From: Candidatus Krumholzibacteriota bacterium
GTDB taxonomy: Bacteria; Krumholzibacteriota; Krumholzibacteriia; JAJRXK01
NCBI GenBank assembly: GCA_963727455.1
Contig: CAVSGG010000011.1
Location: 31,791-95,790 of the forward strand
Reading direction: 5' to 3'
Length of the DNA: 64,000 nt
The position numbers and the translations under genes were made by a program. Under the pieces are notes generated by a model. It did not search any database and was not told the origin of the DNA. It saw nothing but the letters and a program-made list of their open reading frames with translations. Below are positions 12,320-48,336 of the stretch, one piece after another; positions within the stretch are counted from its first letter, which is position 1, and each line of letters begins with the position of its first letter.

Positions 12320-12774
12320 GTCAACTTCCCATCGATGACGATGTCCTTACCCTCTTTATCCACTCGGAAGGCCTCGAGCGGCCGCGGTGGTGGGCCGGAG
12401 ATCACACGCCCATCGACGTCGAAGCGCCCGTTGTGACACGCGCACCAGATCACGCCGTCCCCGGGCACGTACTGTACGGTGCAGCCCTCATGCGTGCACT
12501 TGGCGCTGAGACAGCGCAGCTTCTGCGAGCTATCCTCGAAGACGAGCAAGCGGGTGGCGCCCGAGCGTACGATCACAAACTGGTCATGATCGAGTGTCGC
12601 GGTGTCCTGCGCGCTCAAATGAACGGGTCCGCTCGCCCCCTGCTGGGGCAGAGGTTTCAAGTAGCGGAAGATCGGTAAGATGGCGGCTGCGAGCGTACCC
12701 ACGACCCCCAACCCCAAGAGCCAATCCAAGAAACTGCGGCGGGAGACGAGATCTTCACTGGAAGGTTGCGTCAT
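12316..12774 (-). CDS. Rieske [2Fe-2S] protein
   Basis: Tat motif SRRSFL, CTHEGC and CACHNGRF boxes, GPPPRPL. Confidence 0.93.
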   Translation of the reverse strand: MTQPSSEDLVSRRSFLDWLLGLGVVGTLAAAILPIFRYLKPLPQQGASGPVHLSAQDTATLDHDQFVIVRSGATRLLVFEDSSQKLRCLSAKCTHEGCTVQYVPGDGVIWCACHNGRFDVDGRVISGPPPRPLEAFRVDKEGKDIVIDGKLT

Positions 12775-30125: not shown

Positions 30126-30668
30126 ATGCGTAAATTCACCTTGATCCTGAGCTTGGCCGTCCTGGCGCTCTTCATCTTCAGCACGATGAGCGTGGCGGCC
30201 GATCATGAGTATGTCGGCGTCTACAAGTGCAAAATGTGCCACAAGACGGAATCCAAGGGGGACCAATACGGGATTTGGCTGAAGAGTGCCCACGCCAATG
30301 CCTACAAGGTTCTTGCCACCGATGAAGCCAAGTCCGTGGCGGCCAAGCTGAAGCTGGAAGGCGACCCGCAGAAATTGGATGAGTGCCTTTCCTGCCACGT
30401 GACCGCGCACGGCGTGGATGCGAAACTCCTGGGTGCCAAGTACACCGTCGAAGATGGTGTGGGCTGCGAGAGCTGCCATGGTCCGGGAGGCGACTATATG
30501 AAAATGCCGGTCATGAAGGACAAGGAAAAGGCGGTGGCCGCGGGCCTGATCATTCCCGATGAGAAGACCTGCATCCAGTGCCACAACGACAAGAGCCCGA
30601 CCTACAAGGAATTCGATTACAAAAAGTTCTACGCCAAGATCGCGCACCCCATTCCCACCGAGAAATAG
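30126..30668 (+). CDS. Periplasmic tetraheme cytochrome c (c554-like)
   Basis: Signal peptide; YVGVYKCKMCH, SAHANAY, CLSCH, GVGCESCHGPG, CIQCH. Confidence 0.9.
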   Translation: MRKFTLILSLAVLALFIFSTMSVAADHEYVGVYKCKMCHKTESKGDQYGIWLKSAHANAYKVLATDEAKSVAAKLKLEGDPQKLDECLSCHVTAHGVDAKLLGAKYTVEDGVGCESCHGPGGDYMKMPVMKDKEKAVAAGLIIPDEKTCIQCHNDKSPTYKEFDYKKFYAKIAHPIPTEK

Positions 30669-30705
30669 GGGCTCAGGCGCGGAGGCGTGAAACCAAAATT
30701 CGAGT

Positions 30706-30731
30706 GACGCCGGTCTTTTCAGGCCGGCGTC
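30706..30731 (+). terminator. Intergenic stem-loop after the c554-like gene
   Basis: GACGCCGGTCT-TTTC-AGGCCGGCGTC; no clear U-tail. Confidence 0.4.
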
Positions 30732-30763
30732 GTTCATGTGAGGCTGGAAGATGAGGATGAAGA

Positions 30764-32734
30764 TTGCGATGGACTGCGAATTCCGGACGCCCCTCCCGGC
30801 GAATCGCACGGCAGTGGACTTACTTCTCGCTGACACTTTTGGCGCTGAGTCTCTTGTCTCCCCGCCCCGTGGTGGCGAGCAGCGACGACTGCCTCGGTTG
30901 CCACGCACCCAAGGAGGAAGTGGTCGACGTAGCGCATCAGGTGGATCCCGCCAAGTTTGCCGCGTCCATTCACGGGCAGGCGGGGCTGGAGTGCACGGAC
31001 TGCCACGAGGGGAATTTCGACGAGGTTCCGCATGAAGGCGTCGTGGTTCCTCACTGCACGAACTGTCACGAAGAGGCCGGCGAGCAGTTCAAGTCCAGCG
31101 CTCACGAACAGATCGTTCTCAAGGAGGGCGAGAACTCGCCCTTCGGCGAGAATCCCTGTGCGGCTTGCCACGGGGTGCACGACGTGCTTCCGCCCGACAA
31201 CCCACAGAGTCGCGTCTTCTATCGCAACATTCCCGCAACCTGCGGGCGCTGTCACGGCGACACCAAGATCATCCAGCTCACCGGGGTGAACGCGAATCCG
31301 CCCGCCCAATACGAGACCAGTGTTCACGGTCTGGATCTGTCAGACCCCAACAAGAAGCCGGCCGTCTGCAGCAGTTGTCACGGTTATCACGACATCCGTC
31401 TGGCGAAAGACCCCAAGTCGCGCATCAACCCCTTCAACATTCCCTCCACCTGCGGCCAGTGCCACAAAGAAGAAGCGCAGACTTACTTGGGTTCAGTGCA
31501 CGGAGTCGCCTCGCAACGGGGCGTGACTTTGGCTCCGACCTGCACCACCTGTCATGGCATGCACACCATTGCTCCGGTCACCCAAAAGGCCGGAGGCAAC
31601 AAGACCAGCCGGCGACTGGTTCGAACCACCTGCCCGGCCTGTCACCAGAGCACAGCGCTGATCAGTCGCTTCAACATCGCTGCCGCGAGAGTCTCGACCT
31701 ACGAGGCAAGCTACCACGGCCTCGTATCCCGTCGTGGCGGGACGAACGTCGCCGACTGCGCGAGCTGTCACGGCATCCACAACATCTACGACTCCAGCGA
31801 TCCCCGCTCCACTGTCGCTCCGCAGAACCTGGAAGCCACCTGCGGAAAATGCCACCCCGGTGCCGGAGAGAAGTTCGTCAAGCAACCCGTTCATCTCCTG
31901 GAATCCAAGACGAGTGCGAAAGCGACCAACATCACTATTTGGGTCAAGCGCGTGTACTGGGTGCTGCTCATCGGCGTCTTGGGCGGCATGTTGCTGCACA
32001 ACGCGGTCATTCTCTTCTTCTACATCCGCAAGAACTGGCGCAAGCAGAAGGGTGAGGAGAACCGCCGGCGCTTCAACCGCAGCGAGATCTGGCAGCACTC
32101 GCTCTTCCTGATCGCATTCGTGCTTCTGGCCCTCTCAGGCTTCATGCTGGCCTATCCCGACCACTGGTGGGCGCGCGCCATGACCGCGCTCGGAGTGGGA
32201 GAAACCGCGCGACGGGCGATTCACCGCGTCAGCGCGGTGGTGATGGTGGCAGTGAGTCTGTACCACATCTACTGGATCGCCTTCACTTCCTACGGACGCG
32301 GCGAGCTGAAACGCATCGCGCCGCGTCTGCGTGACGCGCGCGAGCTTCTGCAGAACATGCGCTTCCACCTGGGCAAGAGCGAACAGCAAGCAGCCTTCGC
32401 CAAGTTCGACTACCCGGCCAAGATGGAGTATTGGGCTCTGGTCTGGGGAACCGTGGTCATGGCTCTGACCGGCGCGATTCTCTGGTTCCCGGTAGTGGCC
32501 ACTTCCGTCTTCCCCTCGTGGATCGTGGATGTCGCCACCGTCATCCACCTCTTCGAAGCGTGGCTGGCGACCCTGGCGATTCTCATCTTCCACTTCTTCT
32601 TCGTGATCTTCCATCCGGAGGTCTACCCGCTCAGCTTCGCGATGCTGCGCGGCACGATGCCCTCGCGTCTTGCGGAGCATCACCATCCGGCCTGGAGGAA
32701 GGAAGACGACGCACCGGCGCCGGCCGGGGAATAA
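30764..32734 (+). CDS. CbcL-like fusion: 11-heme periplasmic cytochrome c plus FdnI/HydC-type cytochrome b membrane domain
   Basis: 11 CxxCH motifs, then TM helices with His ligands (WQH, IHR, YH, IHLFEA, FHFF) and KFDYPAKMEYWALVWG. Start uncertain. Confidence 0.85.
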   Translation: MRWTANSGRPSRRIARQWTYFSLTLLALSLLSPRPVVASSDDCLGCHAPKEEVVDVAHQVDPAKFAASIHGQAGLECTDCHEGNFDEVPHEGVVVPHCTNCHEEAGEQFKSSAHEQIVLKEGENSPFGENPCAACHGVHDVLPPDNPQSRVFYRNIPATCGRCHGDTKIIQLTGVNANPPAQYETSVHGLDLSDPNKKPAVCSSCHGYHDIRLAKDPKSRINPFNIPSTCGQCHKEEAQTYLGSVHGVASQRGVTLAPTCTTCHGMHTIAPVTQKAGGNKTSRRLVRTTCPACHQSTALISRFNIAAARVSTYEASYHGLVSRRGGTNVADCASCHGIHNIYDSSDPRSTVAPQNLEATCGKCHPGAGEKFVKQPVHLLESKTSAKATNITIWVKRVYWVLLIGVLGGMLLHNAVILFFYIRKNWRKQKGEENRRRFNRSEIWQHSLFLIAFVLLALSGFMLAYPDHWWARAMTALGVGETARRAIHRVSAVVMVAVSLYHIYWIAFTSYGRGELKRIAPRLRDARELLQNMRFHLGKSEQQAAFAKFDYPAKMEYWALVWGTVVMALTGAILWFPVVATSVFPSWIVDVATVIHLFEAWLATLAILIFHFFFVIFHPEVYPLSFAMLRGTMPSRLAEHHHPAWRKEDDAPAPAGE

Positions 32735-34691: not shown

Positions 34692-35763
34692 TCACTGCGC
34701 CATGATTCTGGCTAACAGCTCATCGTCGGCCTTCAGGAAGCCCGCCTTGACGATGCGCGGGGTGAGGGTGCGCCAGTTCTCACCCTTCTCGAAGATCTCT
34801 TTGAACATCGCGAGCGCGGAATCGGTCTCGCCCGCGTTGCACAGCGCCACCGCGTACCAGTAGCTGGCCTCGAGATTGTCTCCCAAAATGCGCTGCGCCG
34901 CGCCATAGGCGCGCTTGGCCGCGGCCAGGTCCCCCTTCTCCACCGCCAAGTCGCCCTGGTTCATCATGTCGTAACCGTGCTGCAGAACCAGCAGTCGCCC
35001 GAGTTCTTCCACCGGTTTGGGGGCATCCTCCACCCTCAGGTCGACCACGATGTCGTTCCAGGCTTGGCCGGAAGGTGTGCCCTTCACCACGAGCATCGCG
35101 GCGGACTGCCGGCCACGGATGTCTCCCCCCTCCTTGCTGGGCCGCCTGCAACGCGGCCAGCATACGCTGGGAGAGATCACCCTTCGCGGCTTCGAACGCG
35201 GCCGCCATGGCGTCGGGCACCGTATTCTTCTCCATGAGATTGGCCTGGCAGCTATAGTTCTCGCCCGCGTGATCGCCGGCTTCGGCGATGCAGCCGCTGC
35301 CGGTGTGCACCGCCACCCTTCCCTGGGCATCGATCATCGCCACCTGACGAATTTCCGGGTGATCATCGGCCTGCAGGAGCGCCTTCAAGCTCGCCGGCGC
35401 CGAGCGTCCCGCCGCCATCATGTCCAAACCGAGAGGGCCGTAGGTGAGATCGACCATCGACTGGGTGGCCACCGCGCCCACTCCGGCGCGCGCCCAGGGC
35501 ACGGCGGTCCCCACGCTGAACCAGTGCGACTGCACCGCCACGCCCAGCTCACCAGTCTTGGGATCGCGCGCGACGATGGAATAGGTGGTGACGGGACGGA
35601 TGGGGGAGATCCGCGGAGCGCTCGTCCCAGCCTGCGCGGCGAAAGGCGTGGCGATGGCCGCCGTAGTGGCCTGCGCCTGGACCAAGGAAGGCGCGCAAAA
35701 GCCCGTGGCCAGAGCGGACAGCAGAACTAGAACGGCGAGTGATCGAAGCAACCTGGCATGCAT
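34692..35763 (-). CDS. DUF1028 (Ntn-hydrolase-like) plus TPR exported protein, frameshifted in this sequence
   Basis: TYSIVARDPKTGELGVAVQSHWFSVG in one frame; GGDIRGRQSAA, DLRVED and TPR in another. The switch occurs at a G-rich run near 35125-35135. Confidence 0.85.
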
Positions 35764-35828
35764 CGGAAACTCCTTGCTGGAAGTCCGAAGCATTCTACAC
35801 GGAGCCCAGTCGCTCAACCAGCATCAGC

Positions 35829-37325
35829 TCAAGGCGCGTGACACTCGGTGCACTTGGTATCCTTCCACGCACCGCCGACGTCCTCCGGATGGCGGTACTC
35901 GTGTCCTTCGATGTCGGTGAACCCACTGCCATCGTCGAATTGCTGGGCCACGATGGTGTGACAGACGTTGCAATCGTGGGGAATGGCCTCGCCACTCTCA
36001 GTCACGTGGTTGCCGTCGTGACAGCGGAAGCAACCGTCGCTGAAGAGATGTCCGATGTTGTCCTCGTGAGCCTTCCAGTCGGTCTTCATCTCGGGGAAGT
36101 AGTTCTTCGTGTACAAGTCCCAGGTGACATCGACCGCGGCCTGAATCTGGGCCGCATTGGCGCCGGCATCGCTGCACTGCTTGCGGATGGATTCCTTCAG
36201 TCCCTTCTCCGCCTCCTCGCGATTCGCGTAGTCCTGCTCCATGGCGTCCACCATGATGCCTTTGATGTCGGGGATGGTCTTGCTCACCTTGCCCGTGGCC
36301 AGGGCCCGGTTGGCGAGGTGGGCGGGCGGATTGTAGCGATGCGAAGGCCGGTTGTGGCAGTCGATGCAATCCATCACCCGGATGTTGTCGTCGGTGAGGG
36401 CGCTCTCATCGAAATCCTCGTCAGTGCTCTTGAACACTTTGACGGTTCCATCGGCCGTGGTCGAACGCACCCAAGGAATGACCTGACGACGCTCGTCGGT
36501 CGACACGTACTCCACCTTGTTCTCGCGGTTGCTGTGCCAGTGAATCCCCTCGGTATGACCGGTTTCGCTGTGGGCCCCGCCGGTCTTCAACAAGAGGTGG
36601 AGGCGGAAGTGCCGATTGTCTTCTTCGGGCAAGTAGTAGTCGTGGACCACGTATCGGTCGCTGTAGAAGACCTCGGGCCAGTGACACTGCTCGCAAGTCT
36701 CACGGGAAGGCCGCAGGTTCTTGATCGGGGTATGAATCGGGCGGGGATAGCTGTTGGTCAAAACCGCGTAGACCTGATAGGAGCCGGAGAGCTTCGAACG
36801 AACGAACCACTCGGCTCCCGGACCAATGTGGCACTGTACGCAGGCAACTTTGGCATGCGGGGAATTCTGGTAGGCCACGAATTCCGGTTCCATGACGCTG
36901 TGACAGGTCTCTCCGCAGAACTTCACGCTCTCGGTGGCCTCGTAGGCCTGGTAGGTCCCGAAGGCGGTCATTCCCAAGAAGATCGTCGTCCCCACCGTGA
37001 AGATGACGGCCGCGCGCCGCGTCTGACCTTCATTGAGATCGATGCGCGGCAGAGGCTTGTCGGGCTGCCCATGGCTGCGCCGTCGATGTTGCCGCCAAGC
37101 TCCCACCACCACCGCGAGCAGTCCCATGATCAAGAAGATCGGCAGGATGATGAAGGCGATGATCCCCATGTAGGGGCTGGAGTCCTTGCTCAGGACCTCC
37201 AGGACCATCAGGAAGAGGATCAAGAGCAGGCTCAGCGCGGCCAGGGACGCACCGAGCATCGTGACGAGGTTGTAAAAGACCGAGGGCAGTTTCTTCTGCG
37301 GCGGAGCTTGACCTTCAGAATTCAC
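35829..37325 (-). CDS. ImcH-like NapC/NirT-family heptaheme inner-membrane quinol dehydrogenase
   Basis: Three N-terminal TM helices, FCGETCHSVM (CxxxCH), CVQCHIGPGA, 7 heme motifs in total, CIDCHNRPSH, GCFRCHDG. Confidence 0.85.
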   Translation of the reverse strand: MNSEGQAPPQKKLPSVFYNLVTMLGASLAALSLLLILFLMVLEVLSKDSSPYMGIIAFIILPIFLIMGLLAVVVGAWRQHRRRSHGQPDKPLPRIDLNEGQTRRAAVIFTVGTTIFLGMTAFGTYQAYEATESVKFCGETCHSVMEPEFVAYQNSPHAKVACVQCHIGPGAEWFVRSKLSGSYQVYAVLTNSYPRPIHTPIKNLRPSRETCEQCHWPEVFYSDRYVVHDYYLPEEDNRHFRLHLLLKTGGAHSETGHTEGIHWHSNRENKVEYVSTDERRQVIPWVRSTTADGTVKVFKSTDEDFDESALTDDNIRVMDCIDCHNRPSHRYNPPAHLANRALATGKVSKTIPDIKGIMVDAMEQDYANREEAEKGLKESIRKQCSDAGANAAQIQAAVDVTWDLYTKNYFPEMKTDWKAHEDNIGHLFSDGCFRCHDGNHVTESGEAIPHDCNVCHTIVAQQFDDGSGFTDIEGHEYRHPEDVGGAWKDTKCTECHAP

Positions 37326-37640: not shown

Positions 37641-39008
37641 GTGAAAACTATCCATGCCCTTGGATCGAAGCGAATTCGCTCCTCCACATGGACCCGTGTG
37701 TTGCTCTTGCTGCTCGGCAGCTCCCTCCTCGTCAGCCCGACAGCGTGGGCGCAGACCGAGAGTTCGAGGGCAAGCCAGAATACGGCCTTCGCCAGCGCGC
37801 AAAGCTGGTATTTCCGCACCCGAACCACGGGGTATGCCTACACGACCGCGCCCAAGGATGCGGTCAACGAGGAAACGAAGCACTTCGAGTTCTACCAGTA
37901 TCTCGACGGCGCCGTCAGCGGATTTGCCCAGGGCAAACTCGACCTGCGTCTCTCAGGGCGCTTCGCCGACGACTTTGCGTTCCGGGCCAACCCAACCACG
38001 CCGTACCGGCTCTACTCAGCCTATCTACAGGCTCACCTCTCGCGCCGGGGACGTCTGCGTCTGGGCCGCCTCTTCGTGCAGGAGGGCGTTGCCAACTACA
38101 CGATGGACGGCCTCTATCTGGCTCTGAAGCCCACCCCGCGGCTCAAGCTGCGGGCCTGGGGTGGCGCGCGTTCGCCCTACAACATGGAATGGGAAGCCAG
38201 CAATCTCAGCGATGAAACTGCGCTCGGCGCCCACGCCATCGCGCTCTTGACACCTTGGATGAATCTGGGCGTGGACTGGGCGTACCTCGAGCACAACGGA
38301 GCCCGCGCCTACCAGAAAGTGGGAGCCGAGGCCTCGCTGCGCCCCACTCCTGGCCTGCGCACCATCTTGAGGGCCCACTACGAGACGGAGAGCGAGCAGT
38401 GGGACCAGGCCGAGCTGCTCGCCTGGTACCGTCCCACGCCCGGCTGGCCCATGCTGAATGTGCAATACCTCGATCGCCGCCAGAGTGTCGAGAAGAACAC
38501 CTATTGGGAGAGATTCCTCCCCTCCCTCGACCGCGTGCGTCTCGCCCGCGCTTCCGCGCGCTACGAGAACGCGGAAGAGTGGGGGCTGGAAGTGGAGTAC
38601 TTCGGTTCCTTCGTCGACGAGTTCGAACAGACCCGGCTCGGCGGAGCGGTTCTCTTTCCTTACGGCCGCCTGGGCTATTCAGTGCGCCTGGGAGACGCGG
38701 GGGAAGAGAGTCGCTGGTTCGGAGATCTGCGCTGGCGGCCCCTCAGCTGGTGGAACCTGAGTGGTGGAGCAATGCTCTCCACCTACGCTCTCCTGAAGGA
38801 TGCGCCCGAGGACTTCGAGCGCGACCTGGTCACGCTCTACGCCCGCAGCGTGACTCGTTTGCGGGACGGGCTGAATCTCCATCTGGAATTCCAGAGCTTG
38901 GACAATCCACAGTATTCCAAGGACCTGCGCTTCTTGGTCGGCATCGATCTCGCCATGGGACGAGGCGCCTCGAGCACTGGACTCGGAACAGGAGGGTGGT
39001 TGCAGTGA
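37641..39008 (+). CDS. Putative outer-membrane beta-barrel porin of a porin-cytochrome complex
   Basis: Signal peptide; aromatic-rich alternating strands (RLYSAYLQ, RLRLGRLFV, DGLYLAL); no helical TM; translationally coupled to the dodecaheme gene. Confidence 0.62.
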   Translation: MKTIHALGSKRIRSSTWTRVLLLLLGSSLLVSPTAWAQTESSRASQNTAFASAQSWYFRTRTTGYAYTTAPKDAVNEETKHFEFYQYLDGAVSGFAQGKLDLRLSGRFADDFAFRANPTTPYRLYSAYLQAHLSRRGRLRLGRLFVQEGVANYTMDGLYLALKPTPRLKLRAWGGARSPYNMEWEASNLSDETALGAHAIALLTPWMNLGVDWAYLEHNGARAYQKVGAEASLRPTPGLRTILRAHYETESEQWDQAELLAWYRPTPGWPMLNVQYLDRRQSVEKNTYWERFLPSLDRVRLARASARYENAEEWGLEVEYFGSFVDEFEQTRLGGAVLFPYGRLGYSVRLGDAGEESRWFGDLRWRPLSWWNLSGGAMLSTYALLKDAPEDFERDLVTLYARSVTRLRDGLNLHLEFQSLDNPQYSKDLRFLVGIDLAMGRGASSTGLGTGGWLQ

Positions 39009-39898
39009 AGCAGCTCTTCGCCATCGGTCTCTGCGTTCTGATCCTGCCCGTCTTCGCGGCGCTGGCCCTGGGCGACAGCCCGGCCACGCCGACCACGGGA
39101 ATCCGGCAGGTTCACGACATCCATGCCGAAAACGGCATCGAGTGCGAGACCTGCCACGAGAACGTTCCCGACGCGACCGGCTTGACCGGACTTCTTCCCT
39201 CCATGGATACCTGCGCCAACTGCCACGACGTGGAGGATGAAGACAACTGCAAGATGTGCCACCTGGGCGAAGAGCCCACTGGCTATCCCGAAGAAGCCGC
39301 GAGCATGAGTTCCGGAATGACGGAGCTGGCGCACTTTCCGCACCAGTCTCACATCCAGAAGCAGGAACTCAACTGCAGCGATTGCCATGCTCCCGACGGC
39401 AAGGGCGGACAGACCTTTCCCCAGCATCCGCAATGCCGGAGCTGTCACGCGACGGCGGCTGGCTTCACCGACTGCTCGATGTGTCACGGCGCCAACCAAG
39501 CGCCGGTGCCGCAGAGCCATGGTCCGCAGTGGATGAGCGAGCATGCGCTTGACGCGACTTTCGACCAGAACAAGTGCGAGAGCTGTCATACGCAGACCGA
39601 TTGCCAGGACTGCCACAACGGAGACAACGTCCGCCCGCGCGTGCACGACCTGAACTTCAGCTTCAGCCACGCGCTGGAAGCCCGAAGCAACCAGATGCTG
39701 TGTCAGACTTGCCACGAGGATCCCGTGTTTTGCTCGAGTTGCCACGCGGCGGAACAAGTGCTGCCCGAAAACCACTCGCGCGCGGACTGGGTGACCAGCC
39801 GGCACGGAGTCGAGGCGAGCTTCAATCTCGAGTCCTGCATCGCCTGTCACGATGCCGGTGAGCAAGATCCCACCTGTGCCCGCTGTCACGGAAGGTAG
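39005..39898 (+). CDS. Periplasmic dodecaheme cytochrome c
   Basis: GTG start overlapping the porin stop, RBS GGAGG, signal peptide, and 12 CxxCH motifs in about 297 aa. Confidence 0.9.
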   Translation: MKQLFAIGLCVLILPVFAALALGDSPATPTTGIRQVHDIHAENGIECETCHENVPDATGLTGLLPSMDTCANCHDVEDEDNCKMCHLGEEPTGYPEEAASMSSGMTELAHFPHQSHIQKQELNCSDCHAPDGKGGQTFPQHPQCRSCHATAAGFTDCSMCHGANQAPVPQSHGPQWMSEHALDATFDQNKCESCHTQTDCQDCHNGDNVRPRVHDLNFSFSHALEARSNQMLCQTCHEDPVFCSSCHAAEQVLPENHSRADWVTSRHGVEASFNLESCIACHDAGEQDPTCARCHGR

Positions 39899-39901
39899 AC
39901 C

Positions 39902-40333
39902 ATGCGTGTTCGCCAATCCCTAGGTCTGTTGCTCGTCCTCTTCCTCATCGCCCTGGTCGCGATGGCCTGCGCCGATCGCAAGGATCCCACCGACACCTTC
40001 TACGCCGCTCATCCCGACGAGCAGTGGATGGAAACCCAGAGCGCCGACTTCCACGGAGCCCTGGTGCGTCGCGACGGCCCCGAGTTTTGCCAGAGCTGCC
40101 ACGGCCAGGATCTCATGGGAGCCGAGCAAGCCCCCAGCTGCTATGAGTGCCACAATGGCCCTGGGGGGCATCCGGCCAACTGGATCAACCCCGACCCACC
40201 CTTCCACGGGGATGCGGTCAACCTCAATGGTCCGTTGGGTTGCCGGGACTGCCACGGTTTGGATTACCGCGGCGGCTGGACCGGTGTGTCCTGCTATCTG
40301 TGCCACGATGGTCCGGCGGGAATTTCTTTTTGA
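39902..40333 (+). CDS. Small tetraheme lipoprotein cytochrome c
   Basis: Lipobox VAMAC; CQSCH, CYECH, CRDCH, CYLCH in two internal repeats (FHG...CxxCHGxDxxG...SCYxCHxGP). Confidence 0.88.
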   Translation: MRVRQSLGLLLVLFLIALVAMACADRKDPTDTFYAAHPDEQWMETQSADFHGALVRRDGPEFCQSCHGQDLMGAEQAPSCYECHNGPGGHPANWINPDPPFHGDAVNLNGPLGCRDCHGLDYRGGWTGVSCYLCHDGPAGISF

Positions 40334-40378: not shown

Positions 40379-40496
40379 TGTTGAGGAGTCCAACAGCCCT
40401 GTGGAGAGAGTCCACAGGGCTGTTTATCCGTTGCATGCCAACGAGTTGGAAGCTTACGTGCGTCCGGGCGTCAAAACCGTGTGGAACTTTCCTACA
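40379..40496. promoter_or_regulatory. Three TGT-N11-ACA palindromes (putative enhancer-binding-protein UAS)
   Basis: TGTTGAGGAGTCCAACA 40379-40395, TGTGGAGAGAGTCCACA 40400-40416, TGTGGAACTTTCCTACA 40480-40496. 40392-40424 also forms a 14-bp inverted repeat. Confidence 0.6.
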
Positions 40497-40579: not shown

Positions 40580-40621
40580 TGACAGAATGTCCGGCTCGAC
40601 CGCGACGGCATCGCGCATGCG
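40580..40621 (+). promoter_or_regulatory. TGACA-N3-TGTCC operator followed by a sigma-54 -24/-12 promoter
   Basis: TGACAGAATGTCC at 40580-40592; CGGCATCGCGCATGCG with GG(40607-8)-N10-GC(40619-20). Confidence 0.6.
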
Positions 40622-40698
40622 ATGCGAGGAGGCGAACGGGCGCGACCAGGCATGGGTCCATTCCGGACCCGCGGCCGAGCCCCTCGGAGGTGAGAACC

Positions 40699-41391
40699 AT
40701 GGTCGTCGTACTTGTCGCCAGTATGTACATCCTCTTCCTTGCGATCGACGCGATCCTGGACAGACGCAAGCGCAGTCTGCGTGCAGCGGAAACCCAGGCT
40801 CGTCATGCCAAGCTGCGAGAGGCCACCCCGCGCTTCGCCGCGGGATACGCCCTCCCTGAGGATCTTCACTTTCACCAGGGCCACACCTGGCTACATTGGG
40901 TGAGTCCGGAAGAAGCCTATGTGGGAGTCGATGACTTCGGCCGTAGGCTCATCGGGACCGATAGCCGCGTGACTCCCCCCAATCGCGGAAGCTGGGTGCA
41001 TCAGGGCGAGCATGCGGCCAAGGTCCAGCATGAGGGCCGCGAAGTTCATCTGCTCTCGCCGGTCAGCGGTGAGGTTGTCGGGGTCAATCCCGACCTCAAG
41101 AACGACCCCTCGCTGATCAACAAGGATTCTTACGGCCGGGGCTGGATTTTCAAGATCAGGGCCGCCGACCTGCACCAGCAGATCTCCAACCTGCTCTCGG
41201 GAAGTCTGGCTCAGCGCTGGATGGAAGACACCCGGGACCGCTTTCAACGTCAGTTGATGATGGCTTCCGGCAGTGTCATCCAGGATGGCGGTGCCCCGGT
41301 CGATGATGTGGCGAGTCAATTGGATGCCGCGCAATGGCAGCAATTGGCCGGGCAATTCTTCGAGCTTCAGAACAGCTCGAGTGCTGACTAG
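40699..41391 (+). CDS. Membrane-anchored glycine cleavage H-like protein lacking the lipoyl lysine
   Basis: N-terminal TM; FHQGHTW, VGVDDFG, LLSPVSGEVVGVN, DSYGRGWIFKI. QHEGR replaces ESVKA. RBS GGAGGT. Confidence 0.85.
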   Translation: MVVVLVASMYILFLAIDAILDRRKRSLRAAETQARHAKLREATPRFAAGYALPEDLHFHQGHTWLHWVSPEEAYVGVDDFGRRLIGTDSRVTPPNRGSWVHQGEHAAKVQHEGREVHLLSPVSGEVVGVNPDLKNDPSLINKDSYGRGWIFKIRAADLHQQISNLLSGSLAQRWMEDTRDRFQRQLMMASGSVIQDGGAPVDDVASQLDAAQWQQLAGQFFELQNSSSAD

Positions 41392-41400
41392 GGAGCGGGT

Positions 41401-42183
41401 GTGATGAAAGCTCTTCTCTACGATATCAATCTCTGCATCGGCTGTGAAGCCTGCGTGGACGCTTGCAAGGAGGAGAACGGTCTCCCGGAGGAACCGAGGG
41501 ACCGTCTCTCCGCCACTTCGTTCACGTATCTGACGGATGCGGGCAACGATCAATATTACCGTCACATGTGCATGCACTGTGTCGAACCTTCCTGCGCTTC
41601 GGCGTGCCCGGTGGGGGCACTCCAGAAGAACGAGATGGGTCCGGTCACCTACGACTACGACAAGTGCATCGGCTGCCGGTATTGCATGGTCGCCTGCCCC
41701 TTTAGCGTTCCGCGCTACGAGTGGGAGTCGAACACTCCGAGGGTTCGCAAGTGTGAGATGTGCAAGCAGCGCACGCTCGAGGGAGGCGTCACCGCCTGTG
41801 CGGAGATTTGCCCCACCGGAGCCACCACCTTCGGAGACCGGACCGAACTCATCGCCACCGCGTGGAAGCGTATTTCGGAGGACCCCGATTCTTACGCGCC
41901 CCGCGTCTTCGGTACCGAAGAGGTCGGAGGAACCTGCGTTTTGATGATCGGTCCCGAGAAGATTCTCGAGGCTGCCATACCGGGGAATCTCCCCGATACG
42001 GCGCCCCCGGAATTGACCTGGGCCGTCATGGAGCGAATTCCGGCCGCGGTGGGAATCGCGGGGGTGAGCCTTCTGGGCATCAACTGGATCATCCGGCGAC
42101 GGATGTCCTTGGCGGCGCAAAACGGAAACGCCGCGGAACATTCCAGCACTGCGAGTGAGATCGGGCAGGAGGAGGATTTGTGA
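41401..42183 (+). CDS. 4x[4Fe-4S] DmsB/HybA/HmcB-like electron-transfer subunit with C-terminal TM
   Basis: CIGCEACVDAC, CMHCVEPSCASACP, CIGCRYCMVACP, CEMC...ACAEICP. Confidence 0.92.
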   Translation: MMKALLYDINLCIGCEACVDACKEENGLPEEPRDRLSATSFTYLTDAGNDQYYRHMCMHCVEPSCASACPVGALQKNEMGPVTYDYDKCIGCRYCMVACPFSVPRYEWESNTPRVRKCEMCKQRTLEGGVTACAEICPTGATTFGDRTELIATAWKRISEDPDSYAPRVFGTEEVGGTCVLMIGPEKILEAAIPGNLPDTAPPELTWAVMERIPAAVGIAGVSLLGINWIIRRRMSLAAQNGNAAEHSSTASEIGQEEDL

Positions 42184-43388
42184 TGAAAGCTCTGTCCTGG
42201 ATGATCACCCATCCCTGGCGCGTGATCGGAATCGTGGTGACCCTCGGGGGTCTCTACGGGGCCTATCTGCGCTTCACGCAGGGTTTGGGCGCGGTCACCA
42301 ATCTCAGTGACGCCTTTCCCTGGGGAATGTGGGTCGGATTCGACGTGATGTGCGGCGTCATGCTGGCCGCGGGCGGATTCACCATCAGCGCTTTGGTCTA
42401 CATCTTCCAGGTGAAGAAATGGCAGCCCATCGCGCGTCCGGCCGTCCTGACCGCTTTCCTGGGCTACCTCCTCGTCGTGGGCGGGCTCATGTTCGACCTG
42501 GGTCACCCCTTCAAGGTGTGGCACCCCTTGGTCATGTGGAACCATCATTCGGTGATGTGGGAGGTTGCCTGGTGCGTGACGCTCTATACGAGCGTGCTCG
42601 CCATGGAATTCGCGACCTTCGTGTTCGAGAAGTTGAACTGGGAGCGTCTCGCGCGCATCTTCCACCACCTTACCTTCCCTCTGACCCTGGCTGCCGTCCT
42701 TCTCTCCATGCTGCATCAGTCCTCACTGGGCAGTCTGTTCCTGCTGGTGCCGGGACGCCTGGACCCGCTGTGGTACACCCCGCTTCTGCCGTTCCTCTTC
42801 TTCGTGTCGGCGATTGCGGTGGGGCTGACCATGACCATCGTCGAATCGAACTTGAGCGCGAGAGCCTTCGGTCGTTGTATCGAGGGACCCGTACTGCAGA
42901 GCGTGGCAAAGGTCGCGGCCTGGGTGATGGGTTTCTACGCCGTGCTCAGAATCGGCGACCTGGTGCAACGTGGCGCGTTGAGCGAGCTCTGGCCACTGGA
43001 TCGAGCTGCAGGATTTTTCTTCGCTGAAATCATCCTCGGCTTGTTGATTCCGCTTGTCATTTTCAGTTATCCACACTTCCGAAAGAACACGCGGCTGCTG
43101 AACCGTGGTGCACAACTGGCTGTGTTGGGTTTCATCATTCACCGGCTCAACGTGGGAATCACCGGCTTCGAAGTCGTTGCGGGAAAAACCTACACTCCCG
43201 CCTGGACTGAGATTGCCGTATCGCTCATGCTTGTAGCGATAGGTGTGACCGCTTTCAATCTGGCGGGCCGTTACCTTCCCATCTTCGAGACGGAGGATCC
43301 CGAGCGTACGAAGATCTGGGCCCAGGAGAACAAGCGCCTTGCGGGGCTCGAGTTCTCCCGCGCTTCTTCTGCTCCCGATCCGAGGTAA
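42180..43388 (+). CDS. NrfD/PsrC-family membrane subunit (HybB/HmcC-like)
   Basis: VTNLSDAFPWGMWVGFDVMCGVMLAAGGF, DLGHP, SVMWEVAWCV, MLHQSSLG. Confidence 0.92.
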   Translation: MMKALSWMITHPWRVIGIVVTLGGLYGAYLRFTQGLGAVTNLSDAFPWGMWVGFDVMCGVMLAAGGFTISALVYIFQVKKWQPIARPAVLTAFLGYLLVVGGLMFDLGHPFKVWHPLVMWNHHSVMWEVAWCVTLYTSVLAMEFATFVFEKLNWERLARIFHHLTFPLTLAAVLLSMLHQSSLGSLFLLVPGRLDPLWYTPLLPFLFFVSAIAVGLTMTIVESNLSARAFGRCIEGPVLQSVAKVAAWVMGFYAVLRIGDLVQRGALSELWPLDRAAGFFFAEIILGLLIPLVIFSYPHFRKNTRLLNRGAQLAVLGFIIHRLNVGITGFEVVAGKTYTPAWTEIAVSLMLVAIGVTAFNLAGRYLPIFETEDPERTKIWAQENKRLAGLEFSRASSAPDPR

Positions 43389-43419
43389 CGAGTCGGCCAG
43401 ATCCCGGGAGTCGAACGGG

Positions 43420-45153
43420 ATGCACGACCATGCTTCTCCTCCGCCCGCCTCCCGCACTCGCGGTGGCGGGCGGAATCTTATGCGGCAGATTTGGCGCAAC
43501 GTGAGCAACTGCGTGGGGTGGCGACTCGTCTTCATTCTCACCATCGTGCTCAGCCTCTCCCTCAGCGCCGCCGGCATCGTTCTGGAACGCATCCAGCGCC
43601 GTAATATGGTGTCCGTGCTCGAAGACACGGCGCGCAGCATGGGAACGATCGTTCTCGCCACCACGCACACCGCGATGCTCGAGAACAATCAGAATTTGCT
43701 GAACGACATGATCCAGAACCTGGGGACCCAGGAACAAATTCTGGCCGCGCGCGTGGTCTCGGCCGGCGGAGAAGTGCGTTATTCCTCGCGTCCGTCCGAA
43801 CTGGGCAAAGTCGCCGACCGCAGCGCGGAACCCTGTCAGGTTTGTCACCGACAGTCTCAACCGAGCGTGCCGAAGTCCTCCAGGGAGGCACTGCACGTCT
43901 ACCGTCTCGCCACCGGAACCAACGCTCTGGGTCTGGCGGTTCCCATTTTGAATCAAAGCGAATGCTACAACGCGGCCTGTCACGTTCACGATCCGAGTCA
44001 AACCGTACTGGGCATCCTGGACCTCGAATTCAGCACCGAACATTTGGAAGCCGCATTGAGCGAGCAGAAATCCGGTTACTGGATTCTCTCCGGGGCACTG
44101 GTTCTCCTCATCTGTCTCGTGGCGGGGTGGTCGGCCTACCGGGTGGTGCACCGACCGATGCACGCCCTCTTGGACGGCACGCGCAGCATCGCGGCGGGAG
44201 ATCTAGATACGCGGCTCCCCCCCCAGTCGATCGGAGAGGTCCACGAGCTGGCCTCCTCCTTCAACAAGATGGCGGCCCAGCTGGAGACGGCGGCGCACGA
44301 TCGCGAGGAGTGGAACCGCACCCTGGAACGACGCGTAGCCGAGAAGACTGCGCAGCTGAAGAAAGCCCAAGACAAACTGGTACTGACCGAAAAAATGGTG
44401 TCGCTGGGGAAGCTCTCGGCCGTAGTTGCGCACGAGATCAACAACCCGCTGGCCGGAATTCTGGTGACGATCAAGCTTCTCCTGCGCCGCCTGCCCCGGC
44501 TTCTGGACGGCACCTCCAGCGAAGAGGAACGCAAGAGTTCCATCGAGCAGCTGGAAATGGTCGAACACGAGACCGCGCGCTGCGGTGACATCGTGCGCAA
44601 CCTGCTTTTGTTTTCGCGTCGGCGCGAATTGCAGACGCGAATGGAGGATATCGCGGAAATTCTGCGCCGTTGCCTCAAGCTCGTCGGTCACCGCGCGCAG
44701 CTCCAGCAAGTAACCGTCATCGAGAACTTTCCCGAGAAGCTGCCGCATATCGACTGTGACGCAAACCAAGTGGAACAGGCCTGTCTGGTGATGGTGATGA
44801 ATGCCCTGGATGCAATGCCCGAAGGTGGCGAACTGGCTCTCAATCTGGAGTATCTTGAAAAAGAGAAGATGGTACGGGTCAGAGTGCGTGATACCGGCCC
44901 AGGGATTCCCCTAGAAATTCAGGCGCGTATCTTCGAGCCCTTTTTCTCCACCAAGGAAAGCGGCCAGGGCACGGGTTTGGGTCTTGCCGTCCTCTACGGC
45001 ATCGTGCAACGGCATCACGGGCGCATCGATTTTCAATCGCGGCGCGGGGAGGGTACGAGCTTCTGGATGGACCTGCCGGTCAAGTCCCCGCCTTCTTCGC
45101 CCGACGGAAGCTCTTCCGGCGAAGGTTCCGAACAAGAGGTCATCGAATCATGA
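43420..45153 (+). CDS. Membrane HAMP sensor histidine kinase with periplasmic heme-c motifs
   Basis: Two TMs flank a domain with CQVCH and CYNAACH; HAMP; AHEINNPL; FEPFFSTK; GTGLGL. Start 43420 or 43480. Confidence 0.92.
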   Translation: MHDHASPPPASRTRGGGRNLMRQIWRNVSNCVGWRLVFILTIVLSLSLSAAGIVLERIQRRNMVSVLEDTARSMGTIVLATTHTAMLENNQNLLNDMIQNLGTQEQILAARVVSAGGEVRYSSRPSELGKVADRSAEPCQVCHRQSQPSVPKSSREALHVYRLATGTNALGLAVPILNQSECYNAACHVHDPSQTVLGILDLEFSTEHLEAALSEQKSGYWILSGALVLLICLVAGWSAYRVVHRPMHALLDGTRSIAAGDLDTRLPPQSIGEVHELASSFNKMAAQLETAAHDREEWNRTLERRVAEKTAQLKKAQDKLVLTEKMVSLGKLSAVVAHEINNPLAGILVTIKLLLRRLPRLLDGTSSEEERKSSIEQLEMVEHETARCGDIVRNLLLFSRRRELQTRMEDIAEILRRCLKLVGHRAQLQQVTVIENFPEKLPHIDCDANQVEQACLVMVMNALDAMPEGGELALNLEYLEKEKMVRVRVRDTGPGIPLEIQARIFEPFFSTKESGQGTGLGLAVLYGIVQRHHGRIDFQSRRGEGTSFWMDLPVKSPPSSPDGSSSGEGSEQEVIES

Positions 45154-46508
45154 GTACTGCAGCCGCCGATACACTGAAAATCTTGGTCGTCGACGACGAA
45201 ACTGTCGTACGGGAATCGCTCGCGGGATGGCTTCAGGAAGATGGCCACACGGCGATCACCGCGTCCGACGCACAGCAGGCCCTCATCCGCCTCAAGAAAG
45301 AACCGTGCGATCTCGCATTCGTGGATATCAAAATGCCAGGAATGGATGGGCTCGAGCTGAACCGTCGCATTCAAGAGATCTCTCCCGATACTACCGTCAT
45401 CATCATCACTGCTTATGCCTCGGTGGAAACCGCGGTCCAGGCCTTGCGCGAGGGCGCCCACGATTACATCACCAAGCCCTTCGATCCCGAGCATCTCAGT
45501 CATGTAGTCCGCAACACGGCGGCCCAGCGCAATCTGGAGCGGGAGAACTTACAGCTGCGCGAGAAGCTCGCCTCCACCTCCGCCTCCACCCCGATTCTGG
45601 GCGAGAGTCCAGCCATCAAGCGGGTCCGGGAGCTCATCGAAACGGTGGGCCCCACCGAGAGCACGGTGCTCATCACCGGTGAGTCGGGAACCGGCAAGGA
45701 ACTCGTGGCACGCGGTATTCACACGGCGAGCCCGCGCGCGTTTCTCCCATTGGTGGTGGTGAATTGCGGAGCTCTGCCCGAGGGAACCCTGGAGAGCGAA
45801 CTCTTCGGACACGAACGGGGTGCATTCACCGGCGCGCAATACCGACACAAGGGCAAGTTCGAGCTGGCCGACAAGAGCACTCTCTTCTTGGATGAGATCG
45901 GCGAAGTCTCCCCCAAGATCCAAGTGGAGCTTTTGCGAGTGCTCGAAGAAAAGAAGGTTACGCGCCTGGGCGGAACCAGCGAGACCAGTGCCGACTTTCG
46001 CACCGTGGCCGCAACGAACAAGGACCTCCAGCTCGAAGTACAGGCGGGGAATTTCCGCGAGGACCTATTTTACCGTCTCAACGTGTTTCAGATTCACCTC
46101 CCACCCCTGCGTGAACGCAGAGAGGACATTCCGCTTTTGGCGCATGCTTTCGTGACGCGTTTGGCCGCGAGCATGAACAAACCGGTGCCCGAATTGGAAA
46201 GCGAGGCAGTGTCGCGACTGAAGGAGCATGATTGGCCGGGGAACGTGCGCGAGCTGACCAACGCCATCGAGAGGGCCCTGGTCATCCATCAGGGGGGTAG
46301 GATACGCGCGGCTGACCTCCCCATCGGAACGCGCTTTGAACCGGTCTTGGGAAATGGTCCGCGCTCCTTGGCGGAGGCGGAAAAGCAACATGTCCAGAGG
46401 GTCCTGAGCGACTGCGATTGGAACATCTCTCAGGCCGCCCGGATTCTCGAGGTGGACCGCACGACGGTGTACAACAAGATCAAGCTCTACGACTTGAAGA
46501 AGGATTGA
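45150..46508 (+). CDS. Sigma-54-dependent response regulator (REC-AAA-HTH)
   Basis: ILVVDDE, DIKMPGMDG, GESGTGKE, GAFTGA, WPGNVREL, and HTH. Confidence 0.95.
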   Translation: MSTAAADTLKILVVDDETVVRESLAGWLQEDGHTAITASDAQQALIRLKKEPCDLAFVDIKMPGMDGLELNRRIQEISPDTTVIIITAYASVETAVQALREGAHDYITKPFDPEHLSHVVRNTAAQRNLERENLQLREKLASTSASTPILGESPAIKRVRELIETVGPTESTVLITGESGTGKELVARGIHTASPRAFLPLVVVNCGALPEGTLESELFGHERGAFTGAQYRHKGKFELADKSTLFLDEIGEVSPKIQVELLRVLEEKKVTRLGGTSETSADFRTVAATNKDLQLEVQAGNFREDLFYRLNVFQIHLPPLRERREDIPLLAHAFVTRLAASMNKPVPELESEAVSRLKEHDWPGNVRELTNAIERALVIHQGGRIRAADLPIGTRFEPVLGNGPRSLAEAEKQHVQRVLSDCDWNISQAARILEVDRTTVYNKIKLYDLKKD

Positions 46509-46512
46509 GGTC

Positions 46513-47043
46513 GTGGAGGGTCTCGCCCTGATGGCGATGGGCGATCTTCCCGGGGGTTATCCCGCCCTCGTGAAGGAGCGACTGCAGAAGGAGACTTCCA
46601 TGGTCTGCAGAATTCTCGACCGCGTGCTCGATCCTTCCGTGGCCTACGACTCCCAGCGGGCTCAGTACAACTGCCGCGCGCTCCTGCCGCTCCTGGAAAA
46701 CATCTCGATGGAAGAGAATTGCCGCGTTCTGGGTGTGGCTGACGTCGATCTCTTCTCTCCCATTTTCACTTTCGTTCTGGGAGAGGCGCACCTCAATGGA
46801 CGCTGCGGCCTCTTCTCGCTGCATCGTCTGCATCCTTCTCAGTACGGACTGAAGGAGGATCACGAACTTTTGAGGGCTCGCTCCGAGCGCGAGGCCCTTC
46901 ACGAGACCGGACATCTCTTGGGATTGGAACATTGCAGAGACCCGAACTGCGTCATGCAGTTCTCAGCTTCAGTAGAAGAAGTGGACTTGAAACCAGCGGA
47001 ATTCTGTTCTCGCTGCGCGGCCGTCGCACGGGCTGCGTTCTGA
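46513..47043 (+). CDS. Archaemetzincin-family zinc metallopeptidase (M54)
   Basis: RAQY, DVDLF...FTFVLGEA, HETGHLLGLEHC...CVM.FS...VDLK...FCSRC. Confidence 0.9.
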   Translation: MEGLALMAMGDLPGGYPALVKERLQKETSMVCRILDRVLDPSVAYDSQRAQYNCRALLPLLENISMEENCRVLGVADVDLFSPIFTFVLGEAHLNGRCGLFSLHRLHPSQYGLKEDHELLRARSEREALHETGHLLGLEHCRDPNCVMQFSASVEEVDLKPAEFCSRCAAVARAAF

Positions 47044-47070: not shown

Positions 47071-48336
47071 ATGAACCGTCAATTCTCGATCCGCAAAGAG
47101 GGAGAGAACTACCATCTGACATTTCACAACTACCAGGGCCCGGCCGAGGGAAAGAGAATCGCCGATTGGCTCGGATTGGAGGCCGTAGATCCTCCCTCAG
47201 AAGAAGCCCAAGATCAGGCTCCGGGGCTGAATCAGTATTTTCTGTGGCAACCCATGAGCTTCCATCCCGACCTACAGGCCCTGGTGGAAAAGGAGAAGCT
47301 GCCCAAGGTCGCCCAACTGGTGAAGAGGATGCGGGCCACGGTCCTGGAGGGAAAGGAGCTGCTGCCCGATCTGAGGGGCATGCCGGGCACCCCCGGTGCC
47401 AGGACGAGTGCCGCGGCGCCAACAACGGAGCATCATTCCCTCACCGAGGAGATGGAGCAGCTTCACGAGAGGGTCTGGCACCGCGGGCCCAAGGCGATCC
47501 TGCAGGCACTCGTCATCCGTGCCGTACCCACCCTCATTCTCGTGCTCCTTGCTATCCTGGTGTACCGCCACATGGGCGATCACTACACCGAAATGAGCCT
47601 GGAGGACGCTCTGCGGCAGGCAAACGAGCCCATCGCGAGCCAGAGCGCGCTGGGAAAGTTCTGGAATCCCGACTACTCACACCACATTCGCATTCCGATC
47701 ACCTCGGCAAATTTCGCCGGCGGTAGCCGCGTCATCAGTGAGGACGGGGACGTGCTGCATTTCGAGGGAGTGGCCGACATTCGAGCCATCCTGAAGCGGG
47801 CCTCCGACTACACGGGCCTGCCCCGGGTCGATGCCCTGGCCCGTGAGGGCGTCCTGGAAATCCAGCGTCTGACGGCCGGCGGAACCGCCCTTCTGAGTAG
47901 TGGCGTGCTCACCCGTGAGGGCCGGCTCCCGCGCTCCGCGAACAAGCCCAAGCGGGTGTCTCCGGGCATCACGGACGGATTCCAGAACTACGAGATGCTC
48001 GATCCCGAGGATGAAATTGGGCTCAATGCCCTGTCCGGCGTCAGGATTTGTCTGGAAGGCATTGTCAAAAAAGAAGATGCGGGGATGACCCTGCGCTTCA
48101 AGAATGGGGCGGGCGTGGTGCTGCACACGCGGCAGGAGGGAACGGCCTGCGACCACCTGCTGCACTTGTTTGTCGACGATCCAAATACTATTCAAGTAGA
48201 TGGAGTCCTATCCCGGGTGTATCTCCTCGTGGATCGCGAGGATCCCCTGCACTCCCGGAAGAACACCCGTCTTGTCGGTGATTTCGCGGTTTACTCGGCT
48301 TCGGCCCAGAAGTATCACGCGGTCGATCAGAGGTGA
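47071..48336 (+). CDS. Hypothetical bitopic membrane protein
   Basis: 421-aa ORF with strong RBS GGAGGG and one central TM. No recognisable family motif. Confidence 0.7.
   Translation: MNRQFSIRKEGENYHLTFHNYQGPAEGKRIADWLGLEAVDPPSEEAQDQAPGLNQYFLWQPMSFHPDLQALVEKEKLPKVAQLVKRMRATVLEGKELLPDLRGMPGTPGARTSAAAPTTEHHSLTEEMEQLHERVWHRGPKAILQALVIRAVPTLILVLLAILVYRHMGDHYTEMSLEDALRQANEPIASQSALGKFWNPDYSHHIRIPITSANFAGGSRVISEDGDVLHFEGVADIRAILKRASDYTGLPRVDALAREGVLEIQRLTAGGTALLSSGVLTREGRLPRSANKPKRVSPGITDGFQNYEMLDPEDEIGLNALSGVRICLEGIVKKEDAGMTLRFKNGAGVVLHTRQEGTACDHLLHLFVDDPNTIQVDGVLSRVYLLVDREDPLHSRKNTRLVGDFAVYSASAQKYHAVDQR

Follow-up and report, generated by a model that had tools for sequence, protein, structure and literature searches.

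The window analysed here is a 64,000-nucleotide stretch of contig CAVSGG010000011.1 from a Candidatus Krumholzibacteriota bacterium (assembly GCA_963727455.1, 89% complete), and positions 40,699 to 47,043 of it encode a cassette of six genes. All six open reading frames (ORFs) are intact, share one direction and are separated by gaps of 9, −4, 31, −4 and 4 bases, coordinates that bear out an initial annotation, made from the sequence alone, which had described six tightly packed co-directional genes. The cassette and its upstream control elements comprise the following features.

40379..40395, no strand assigned: enhancer-like palindrome 1 (TGT-N11-ACA, core of the TGTKGA-N5-TCCACA type), from a motif search; predicted activator site
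40400..40416, no strand assigned: enhancer-like palindrome 2, within a 14-bp perfect inverted repeat (40392-40424), from a motif search
40480..40496, no strand assigned: enhancer-like palindrome 3, from a motif search
40606..40621, forward strand: sigma-54 (-24/-12) site with GG at 40607-8 and GC at 40619-20 and a predicted start at about 40632, from motif and alignment
40699..41391, forward strand: GcvH-fold protein of 230 residues, from a GCV_H Pfam match, a model and alignment
41401..42183, forward strand: HmcB/HybA-like iron-sulfur (Fe-S) subunit, from an NCBIfam match and analysis of cysteines and tail
42180..43388, forward strand: HmcC/HybB-like NrfD-family membrane subunit, from Pfam and NCBIfam matches, topology and alignment
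43420..45153, forward strand: sensor histidine kinase with a haem-Cache domain, from Pfam matches and a fold search; alternative start at 43480
45150..46508, forward strand: NtrC-family sigma-54 activator, from Pfam and NCBIfam matches (REC, sigma54 AAA+ domain with GAFTGA, Fis-type helix-turn-helix (HTH), HTH_8)
46513..47043, forward strand: archaemetzincin (peptidase M54) of 176 residues, from NF033823 (149 bits, cut-off 145)

The preferred reading, to which a probability of about one half is assigned, is that the cassette is a self-activating sigma-54 operon that would build a three-subunit, menaquinone-reactive membrane module, with the protease limiting the loop. Conservation of the cassette was assessed with a GcvH-like profile searched against a species-representative collection, which returned at least 476 relatives; the best 79 loci were retained, a choice that biases the set towards the window's own subtype. 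Within this set, 60 loci have at least 7.5 kb of downstream sequence, and 53 of these carry all six genes in order, the other seven comprising five with the GcvH-like gene alone, one lacking the Fe-S/NrfD pair and one in which the remaining five genes lie in a convergent operon. The 19 shorter loci include 16 that keep the order to the contig end, two that end before the next gene and one, L091, without the pair. By record title the loci belong to Acidobacteriota (the majority, many closely related), Krumholzibacteriota, Planctomycetota, Eisenbacteria, Gemmatimonadota and others. When, reciprocally, 121 genomes of the phylum were searched with a model of the archaemetzincin, 35 of 37 strong matches lay next to the activator or the haem kinase; kin among the loci and genomes are not independent, so that all these counts overstate conservation. 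The grouping that the initial annotation had suspected to be a system is thus conserved from either seed and in several phyla, whose members are mostly uncultured. A chance cluster of unrelated genes, which could appeal to each family being common on its own, is refuted by the gene order in 53/60 loci, the 35/37 protease places and upstream motifs shared across phyla, and retains a negligible likelihood.

Genome-level matches resolve the cassette into parts. The haem sensor (E below 1e-40) is present in 31 of 33 protease-bearing genomes, or 32 when one split over two contigs is counted, and in the 21 genomes of the top NrfD subfamily the protease and the GcvH-like gene are each found in 20. 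The most closely linked genes are those for kinase, activator and protease; one genome (G031, a single contig, 86% complete) carries this trio without any NrfD or GcvH-like gene, and two others (G046 and G042) carry it without a close NrfD relative. The regulatory genes form a separate operon in L048-L051, L173-L177, L186-L190 and L197, where the GcvH-like genes remain with the NrfD operon. In L048-L051, L186, L187, L189, L190 and L197 that operon is QrcABCD-like, convergent with the kinase-protease-activator genes and flanked by two GcvH-like genes where the contig reaches. These loci indicate that the GcvH-like genes accompany the redox operon and that the protease gene stays with the regulator; protease and GcvH-like genes belong to different, convergent operons in the Qrc-type loci. 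A further arrangement is seen in L052, where a haem kinase of the same type is followed by two receiver-GcvH fusions, a cytochrome and an HmcBC pair bearing a twin-arginine translocation (Tat) signal, with neither a protease nor a sigma-54 activator at the locus. The cassette is built of two layers: a core trio of haem-Cache kinase, sigma-54 activator and archaemetzincin, and an HmcBC/HybAB-like menaquinone module as its output. Mirror-tree correlations among the six genes over 38 loci all fall between 0.61 and 0.95 and do not separate partners. A plasmid search returned canonical-type GcvH matches only, none covering 80%, a metagenome scan with the protease found 8 loci, and atlas searches added no named function.

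The best NCBIfam hits of the Fe-S and NrfD subunits are HmcB and HmcC, respectively, both below the equivalog cut-offs (223/420 and 316/550). The Fe-S subunit displays 16 cysteines for four clusters and a C-terminal membrane tail; the cluster cysteines and the quinone-site Tyr94 are invariant in 70/70 Fe-S subunits. The NrfD subunit (PF03916, 63 bits) has ten helices with an N-in/C-in orientation by charge bias. Its residues Y96, D106, S124, Y136 and R322 are retained in 65/65 sequences and D55 in 57/65, and R322 lies, in the complex model described below, on the helix where the GcvH-fold anchor docks. The set used for comparison consists of the quinone and proton-path residues tested by mutation in QrcCD (PMC13059093), and the QrcD equivalents were mapped by spacing or motif from that paper, without alignment to QrcD itself. 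Position 55 is Lys in 8/65 NrfD subunits, compared with an Asp essential in QrcD, possibly marking an uncoupled or sensing-only variant. With its quinone site intact, the pair is predicted to have menaquinone oxidoreductase activity. A search of PDB sequences returned nothing related to the NrfD subunit. The initial annotation had stressed a quinone module without a catalytic subunit; this is indeed what is seen, but it is not new in itself, as such Fe-S/NrfD pairs have been described and proposed to feed periplasmic cytochromes (PMC3534657, PMC9386147, 10.1101/2023.11.02.564894).

The usual topology, as indicated by the charge bias and by a fusion in a sister clade, implies that the Fe-S subunit should be periplasmic. 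Clear RR signals are found in Fe-S relatives at L052, L208, L211, L221, L222 and L232, and tatC is present in the genome. A crude pattern scan for Tat carriers gave 18 candidates, none of them an obvious orphan catalytic subunit in this 89% complete genome. An inverted topology, considered as an explanation for the missing Tat signal of the cassette subunits, was ruled out by the charge bias and by the fused cytochrome of the sister clade. That clade has Hmc-like operons in which the NrfD subunit is fused to a six-haem domain through an eleventh helix (L228-L231, L233 and L220), and its HmcB-like gene is signal-less too. In L228-L231 and L233, HmcF- and HmcE-like genes, identified by eye, stand before and a kinase gene after; the sister clade stretches fetched contain no GcvH-like or protease gene, and the L228-L231 and L233 genomes are absent from the genome-level matches. 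The cassette might instead be an assembly system, with the GcvH-fold protein as a chaperone for the signal-less Fe-S subunit and the protease as the maturation enzyme of one of the subunits. This would fit the lack of a Tat signal and a protease motif that is intact throughout under the relaxed pattern given below, but in the sister clade (L228-L231, L233) HmcB is just as signal-less and both genes are missing from its vicinity, the confident modelled interface includes no Fe-S subunit residue and the protease follows the kinase and activator, leaving this explanation improbable.

The genes nearest to the cassette that could encode an electron partner lie immediately upstream of it.

37641..40333, forward strand: upstream beta-barrel-like protein, 12-haem cytochrome and 4-haem lipoprotein, outside the conserved cassette

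These porin-cytochrome genes were ruled out as part of the cassette, being found in 6/79 loci and lacking an enhancer hit in front. In the window's own lineage this neighbouring set is probably a candidate electron partner. Divergent from it, a NapC/NrfH-like membrane cytochrome with six CXXCH and one CX3CH motif is encoded at 35829-37325 on the reverse strand, and the two sets together are a likely porin-cytochrome conduit, retained in close relatives only. The Fe-S/NrfD pair could alternatively be a sensing arm that passes menaquinol electrons to the kinase haems and reports on the quinone pool, a role for which no catalytic subunit is needed. Consistent with this are the position of the kinase gene directly after hybB, the two haem motifs found in 54/67 kinases, the operon itself as the only predicted target of the activator, and the lack of any cytochrome or catalytic gene conserved with the cassette. 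However, G031 keeps the trio with no NrfD gene, G046 and G042 keep it with no close NrfD relative, the NrfD subunit of the sister clade carries a fused six-haem cytochrome, the proton-path residues are retained, and a loop without other output is hard to justify. Such a sensing role is considered doubtful.

The GcvH-fold protein matches GCV_H with 72 bits, above the Pfam cut-off and below the TIGR00527 gcvH equivalog cut-off of 115.85. Its model has a mean predicted local distance difference test (pLDDT) score of 91, and the top Foldseek hits are all H-proteins (E 4e-12, root mean square deviation (rmsd) of 1.7). It comprises a long N-terminal membrane helix (residues 1-21), the H-protein domain and a C-terminal helical extension in which W174, QDGG and W213 are conserved. 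The lysine of the E. coli GcvH motif VESVKAASD, the established lipoylation site, aligns with G113, and that column contains no Lys in 82/82 homologues. The protein is thus lipoyl-less and membrane-anchored, as the initial annotation had proposed; a canonical GcvH match is present elsewhere in the same genome. The wider family counts 1231 representatives at 50% identity with E<=1e-30, of which some share is canonical GcvH. Basic residues following the helix, together with the layout of fusions in which a cytochrome or binding protein is joined via one helix, or a receiver domain or HdrA is attached, place the GcvH-fold domain in the cytoplasm. Lipoate-free GcvH domains also occur as parts of larger proteins, joined to HdrA, to multihaem cytochromes, to receivers, via a helix to a periplasmic binding protein (Bacteroidota names), and to cysteine-rich repeats that carry a CxWMxAG motif (examples are P0239-P0259, P0243-P0274, P0110, P0185, P0154, P0167, P0227 and P0275).

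A complex was predicted from three chains, the GcvH-fold, Fe-S and NrfD subunits, with three controls containing unrelated proteins. The score was 0.73 against 0.03 for the best control, and replacement of the NrfD chain abolished it; the score mark is reached by 116/157 solved complexes and 2/215 mismatched pairs, rates that are only rough for this job. The runs agree in at least 92% of contacts, with a partner pLDDT of at least 76. In the modelled interface, residues 1-21 of the GcvH-fold protein pack on NrfD helices around positions 12-16, 49-54, 279-282 and 312-349, and residues 99 and 125 approach cytoplasmic loops of the NrfD subunit; no Fe-S subunit residue is listed in the confident interface. 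The anchor is unusually fixed in length, with Met1 and Asp17 each conserved in 49/51 sequences, which fits a specific dock. Covariation of the predicted contact pairs over 51 paired sequences is slight (mean Z 0.27, reached by 7.8% of null draws) and driven by one pair. Binding of the GcvH-fold protein to the NrfD subunit is supported by modelling, and the complex prediction suggested in the initial annotation did return a contact with one of the Hyb-like subunits. As its N-terminal helix docks on the NrfD subunit in the model, the protein looks like a third subunit rather than the free adaptor first proposed, an accessory role that also fits its tracking with NrfD.

The adaptor role, in which the protein would mainly serve signalling by the kinase, activator or protease and the NrfD link would be secondary, is compatible with the preferred reading. 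It gains from the receiver-GcvH fusions (P0154, L052), the cytochrome-helix-GcvH (P0110, P0185), binding-protein-helix-GcvH (P0243, P0248) and cysteine-rich-GcvH (P0167) architectures, and from four loci (L091, L103, L179 and L182) with the gcvH-like gene directly before the kinase gene. Against it stand the complex model with the NrfD subunit, the predicted co-transcription of the GcvH-like gene with the NrfD operon where the trio is separate, the trio without a GcvH-like gene in G031 and the HdrA fusion, which points to redox complexes; as the main function, it is judged unlikely.

The -24/-12 site upstream of the cassette, CGGCAT-CGCGC-ATGCG, departs from the perfect consensus, and GGCA and ATGC are invariant in 8/8 aligned upstream regions. 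The complete sigma-54 promoter of the initial annotation is therefore a real and conserved site, albeit an imperfect match. A sigma-54-like score of at least 18 is reached in 36/83 upstream regions, compared with a mean of 1.9 in 50 resampled sets, and the enhancer motif is found at 12 bits in 39/83 compared with 0.6 in controls, a count that is partly circular because the motif was defined on the same upstream regions. With a matrix built from 24 sites outside the window's family, the three palindromes, each of 17 bases and starting at 40379, 40400 and 40480, rank within the top five of 53 genome hits and form the only cluster among them. As the genome's only such cluster, the triple suggests that the operon probably activates itself; the encoded activator may accordingly bind all three palindromes, its own operon being the only predicted target. 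A second sigma-54 activator is encoded inside the window at 21522-22958. The inverted repeat at 40392-40424 might also serve as terminator of the upstream cytochrome operon; no enhancer hit precedes the porin-cytochrome genes, and a sigma-70 promoter scan gave nothing above chance. Contigs from two metatranscriptomes, which hold small shares (0.10 and 0.06), have their first base at 40647 and 40649, some 15-17 bases downstream of the predicted start, and the first two genes are covered by one of them; strand, start and a single transcript are not shown by these contigs, and neither observation was used as evidence.

The kinase comprises a periplasmic single-Cache domain followed by HAMP, HisKA (H338) and HATPase domains, and carries the haem motifs CXXCH (139-143) and CX4CH (182-188). 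A CX2-4CH motif is found at the second position in 67/67 kinases (CX4CH in 58, CX2CH in 6 and CX3CH in 3), and an additional CXXCH in 54/67. The sensor adopts a single Cache fold (VIA Z 16.2, rmsd of 2.1, 134 residues aligned to WalK) and is related to GSU0935 (E 3.7e-5); PF21563 is matched by 55/67 sensor members at E<=0.05, and the window kinase itself has no match. Related sCache_heme signalling domains bind NO (PMC12889525), and NO and redox potential are therefore both candidate signals. The redox-sensing signalling system initially proposed is thus retained in part, redox or gas sensing being the best reading of kinase, activator and promoter. The receiver D59 and kinase H338 are invariant in 39/39 sequences. 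As judged by the receiver Asp, GAFTGA, HTH, kinase His, -24/-12 site and palindromes, the predicted pair is an NtrC-family sigma-54 two-component system. The archaemetzincin lacks a signal peptide and has an intact HEXXHXXGXXH + Cys4 motif. Its zinc ligands, catalytic Glu and four cysteines are kept in 73/73 proteases; the window protein fits the pattern HEXXHXXGXXHCX4CXMX17CXXC with a 16-residue spacer, and the strict Gly form is found in 45/73 compared with 73/73 for the relaxed form. Its proteolytic activity is putative. A non-catalytic family member, CarG, acts in transcription control (PMC3427221).

The preferred reading can be set out in five steps. Periplasmic haem(s) of the kinase would respond to redox potential or to a gas, for instance NO, leading to phosphorylation of the activator, which, bound to the three palindromes, would fire the sigma-54 promoter and close a positive loop. 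The HmcB- and HmcC-like subunits would then transfer electrons between menaquinone and multihaem cytochromes of the periplasm whose genes lie elsewhere, with protons taken up or released as in QrcCD. The GcvH-fold N-terminal helix is modelled to dock on the NrfD helix carrying the conserved Arg322, so that the lipoate-free H-protein domain could provide a coupling or regulatory surface under the cytoplasmic face. In the weakest step, the archaemetzincin, as the fixed third component of the kinase/activator pair, may limit or reset the loop, either by proteolysis or by acting as a cofactor like CarG.

Several observations weigh against this scheme. A Tat signal is found in 0/70 Fe-S subunits, and no Tat carrier is encoded within the cassette. 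There is no conserved electron partner, as porin and 12-haem genes occur in 6/79 loci, and haem attachment at CX4CH is putative. Solved archaemetzincins are inactive on many standard substrates (PMC3427221). The GcvH-like gene stands with the trio but has no adjacent HybAB in L091, L103, L179 and L182, and it stands alone in the five loci noted above; receiver-GcvH fusions (P0154, L052) point to a signalling role, and the kinship among loci also enters here. As for the model, the controls were not matched for a membrane helix, the three chains with their own alignments are unlike the calibration set, and its pass may reflect likeness to solved NrfD complexes, because these have extra anchored subunits, as in ACIII (PMC8076601).

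Comparison with known systems places the cassette outside Hmc, hydrogenase 2 and the lipoyl carriers; in outline it is BccR-CbcBA-like, with an HmcBC-like pair. The Hmc complex, HybA/HybB, NhcBC and QrcCD share the tail-anchored four-cluster Fe-S subunit and ten-helix NrfD subunit, and the likeness to HmcB/HmcC and QrcCD extends to the quinone-site and proton-path residues. In contrast, HmcA, HmcE and HmcF are absent from the window cassette and its recurrent neighbours, the NiFe large and small subunits of hydrogenase 2 are absent from the operon, and the cassette differs from both in its Fe-S subunit without a Tat signal, its extra GcvH-fold subunit and its regulatory trio. A ferredoxin with a C-tail and no signal peptide has been described in a pair with HybB, next to a FeFe hydrogenase exported by Tat (10.1101/2023.11.02.564894); this Fe-S protein is of the same type and also encoded upstream of a HybB-like gene, but there the hydrogenase supplies the Tat signal, while no cassette gene has one, and the present cassette is not among the three contexts of that paper. 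In BccR-CbcBA of Geobacter sulfurreducens (10.1101/2021.04.15.440034), a receiver-bearing sigma-54 activator likewise switches a quinol:cytochrome module by redox potential, although CbcBA is a b/c-type cytochrome with a divergent regulator; none of the words kinase, sensor and GSU0599 appears in the text consulted. The sCache_heme sensors (DUF3365/Tll0287, GSU0582/GSU0935; PMC12889525) share a periplasmic single Cache, a haem motif before the last strand, and HAMP and kinase domains, yet have CXXCH in 99% of members, compared with CX4CH in 58/67 and a second CXXCH in 54/67 here. GcvH, GcvH-L and LbpA share the H-protein fold; in contrast to these, the cassette protein lacks the lipoyl lysine and has an N-terminal anchor and a C-terminal extension of about 65 residues. 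AmzA and CarG (PMC3427221) share the HEXXHXXGXXH + Cys4 zinc site, and CarG is an archaemetzincin precedent in transcription control, but unlike CarG the cassette proteases keep the catalytic Glu (73/73). No fixed linkage of an archaemetzincin to a two-component system and no description of the cassette was found in the literature searched, which covered main texts; a term search of a preprint on peat cytochromes (10.64898/2026.05.27.727921) likewise gave nothing relevant.

The surroundings of the cassette display further variation. In the window, a seventh ORF (47071-48336, 421 residues) begins 27 bases past the protease and occurs in 4/79 loci, all close relatives; its product is predicted to have a single membrane stretch and matches nothing in Pfam or NCBIfam, and hemN is next. 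A DUF1028 gene (34692-35817, reverse strand) appears split by a frameshift near 35120, with single ORFs of 375 and 344 residues in L034 and L035, respectively. A cluster encoding Rieske, cytochrome b and 9-haem cytochrome proteins lies at 9336-12774 (reverse strand), and a 4-haem cytochrome with an 11-haem cytochrome fused to an FdnI-like cytochrome b at 30126-32731 (forward strand). The genome contains 19 ORFs with at least three CXXCH motifs, and its only NiFe large-subunit match is on another contig, beside Hox-like genes. Elsewhere, the kinase of the closest relative lies in three frames (L034:10980-12794), through assembly error or decay. The GcvH-like gene at L046:12975-13640 comes immediately after genes for ATP synthase gamma, beta and epsilon at a contig end, its cassette partners being on another contig (L196). 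A soluble NiFe hydrogenase cluster, of group 3b by eye, lies just upstream in L066, L069, L076, L077, L079, L085, L091 and L113. In L179:1-5400 the GcvH-like/kinase/activator/protease set stands beside haem biosynthesis genes (by eye), and the window's hemN is two genes downstream. Acidoferrales-type loci (L094-L131) have a gap of about 360-680 bases between the GcvH-like and Fe-S genes and kinases without the first CXXCH; the gap contains further enhancer motif copies in several loci and a transposase-like ORF in L116.

More broadly, the lipoate-free H-fold with its QDGG extension is tentatively proposed to be an unrecognised, widespread coupling domain at the cytoplasmic side of NrfD- and HdrA-type redox complexes, gating or reporting electron and proton flow under control of either receiver phosphorylation or the trio of di-haem kinase, activator and protease, with the Fe-S subunit exported by a new carrier or route. 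That this domain and the kinase-activator-protease trio form a new class of control is a similarly speculative suggestion. The cassette offers testable roles for two orphan families, the lipoate-free GcvH-like proteins and the bacterial archaemetzincins. The label 'glycine cleavage system H protein' is carried by thousands of proteins that have no capacity for lipoate and seem to serve respiratory complexes as subunits or regulators. For bacterial archaemetzincins no physiological substrate is, to our knowledge, established, and the fixed partnership with one two-component system narrows the candidates to a few proteins. A tail-anchored Fe-S subunit that has neither a signal nor a visible Tat carrier presents a concrete puzzle in protein export. 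Soil and sediment Acidobacteriota commonly carry the cassette, as do candidate phyla, groups in which the control of anaerobic electron flow has been little studied.

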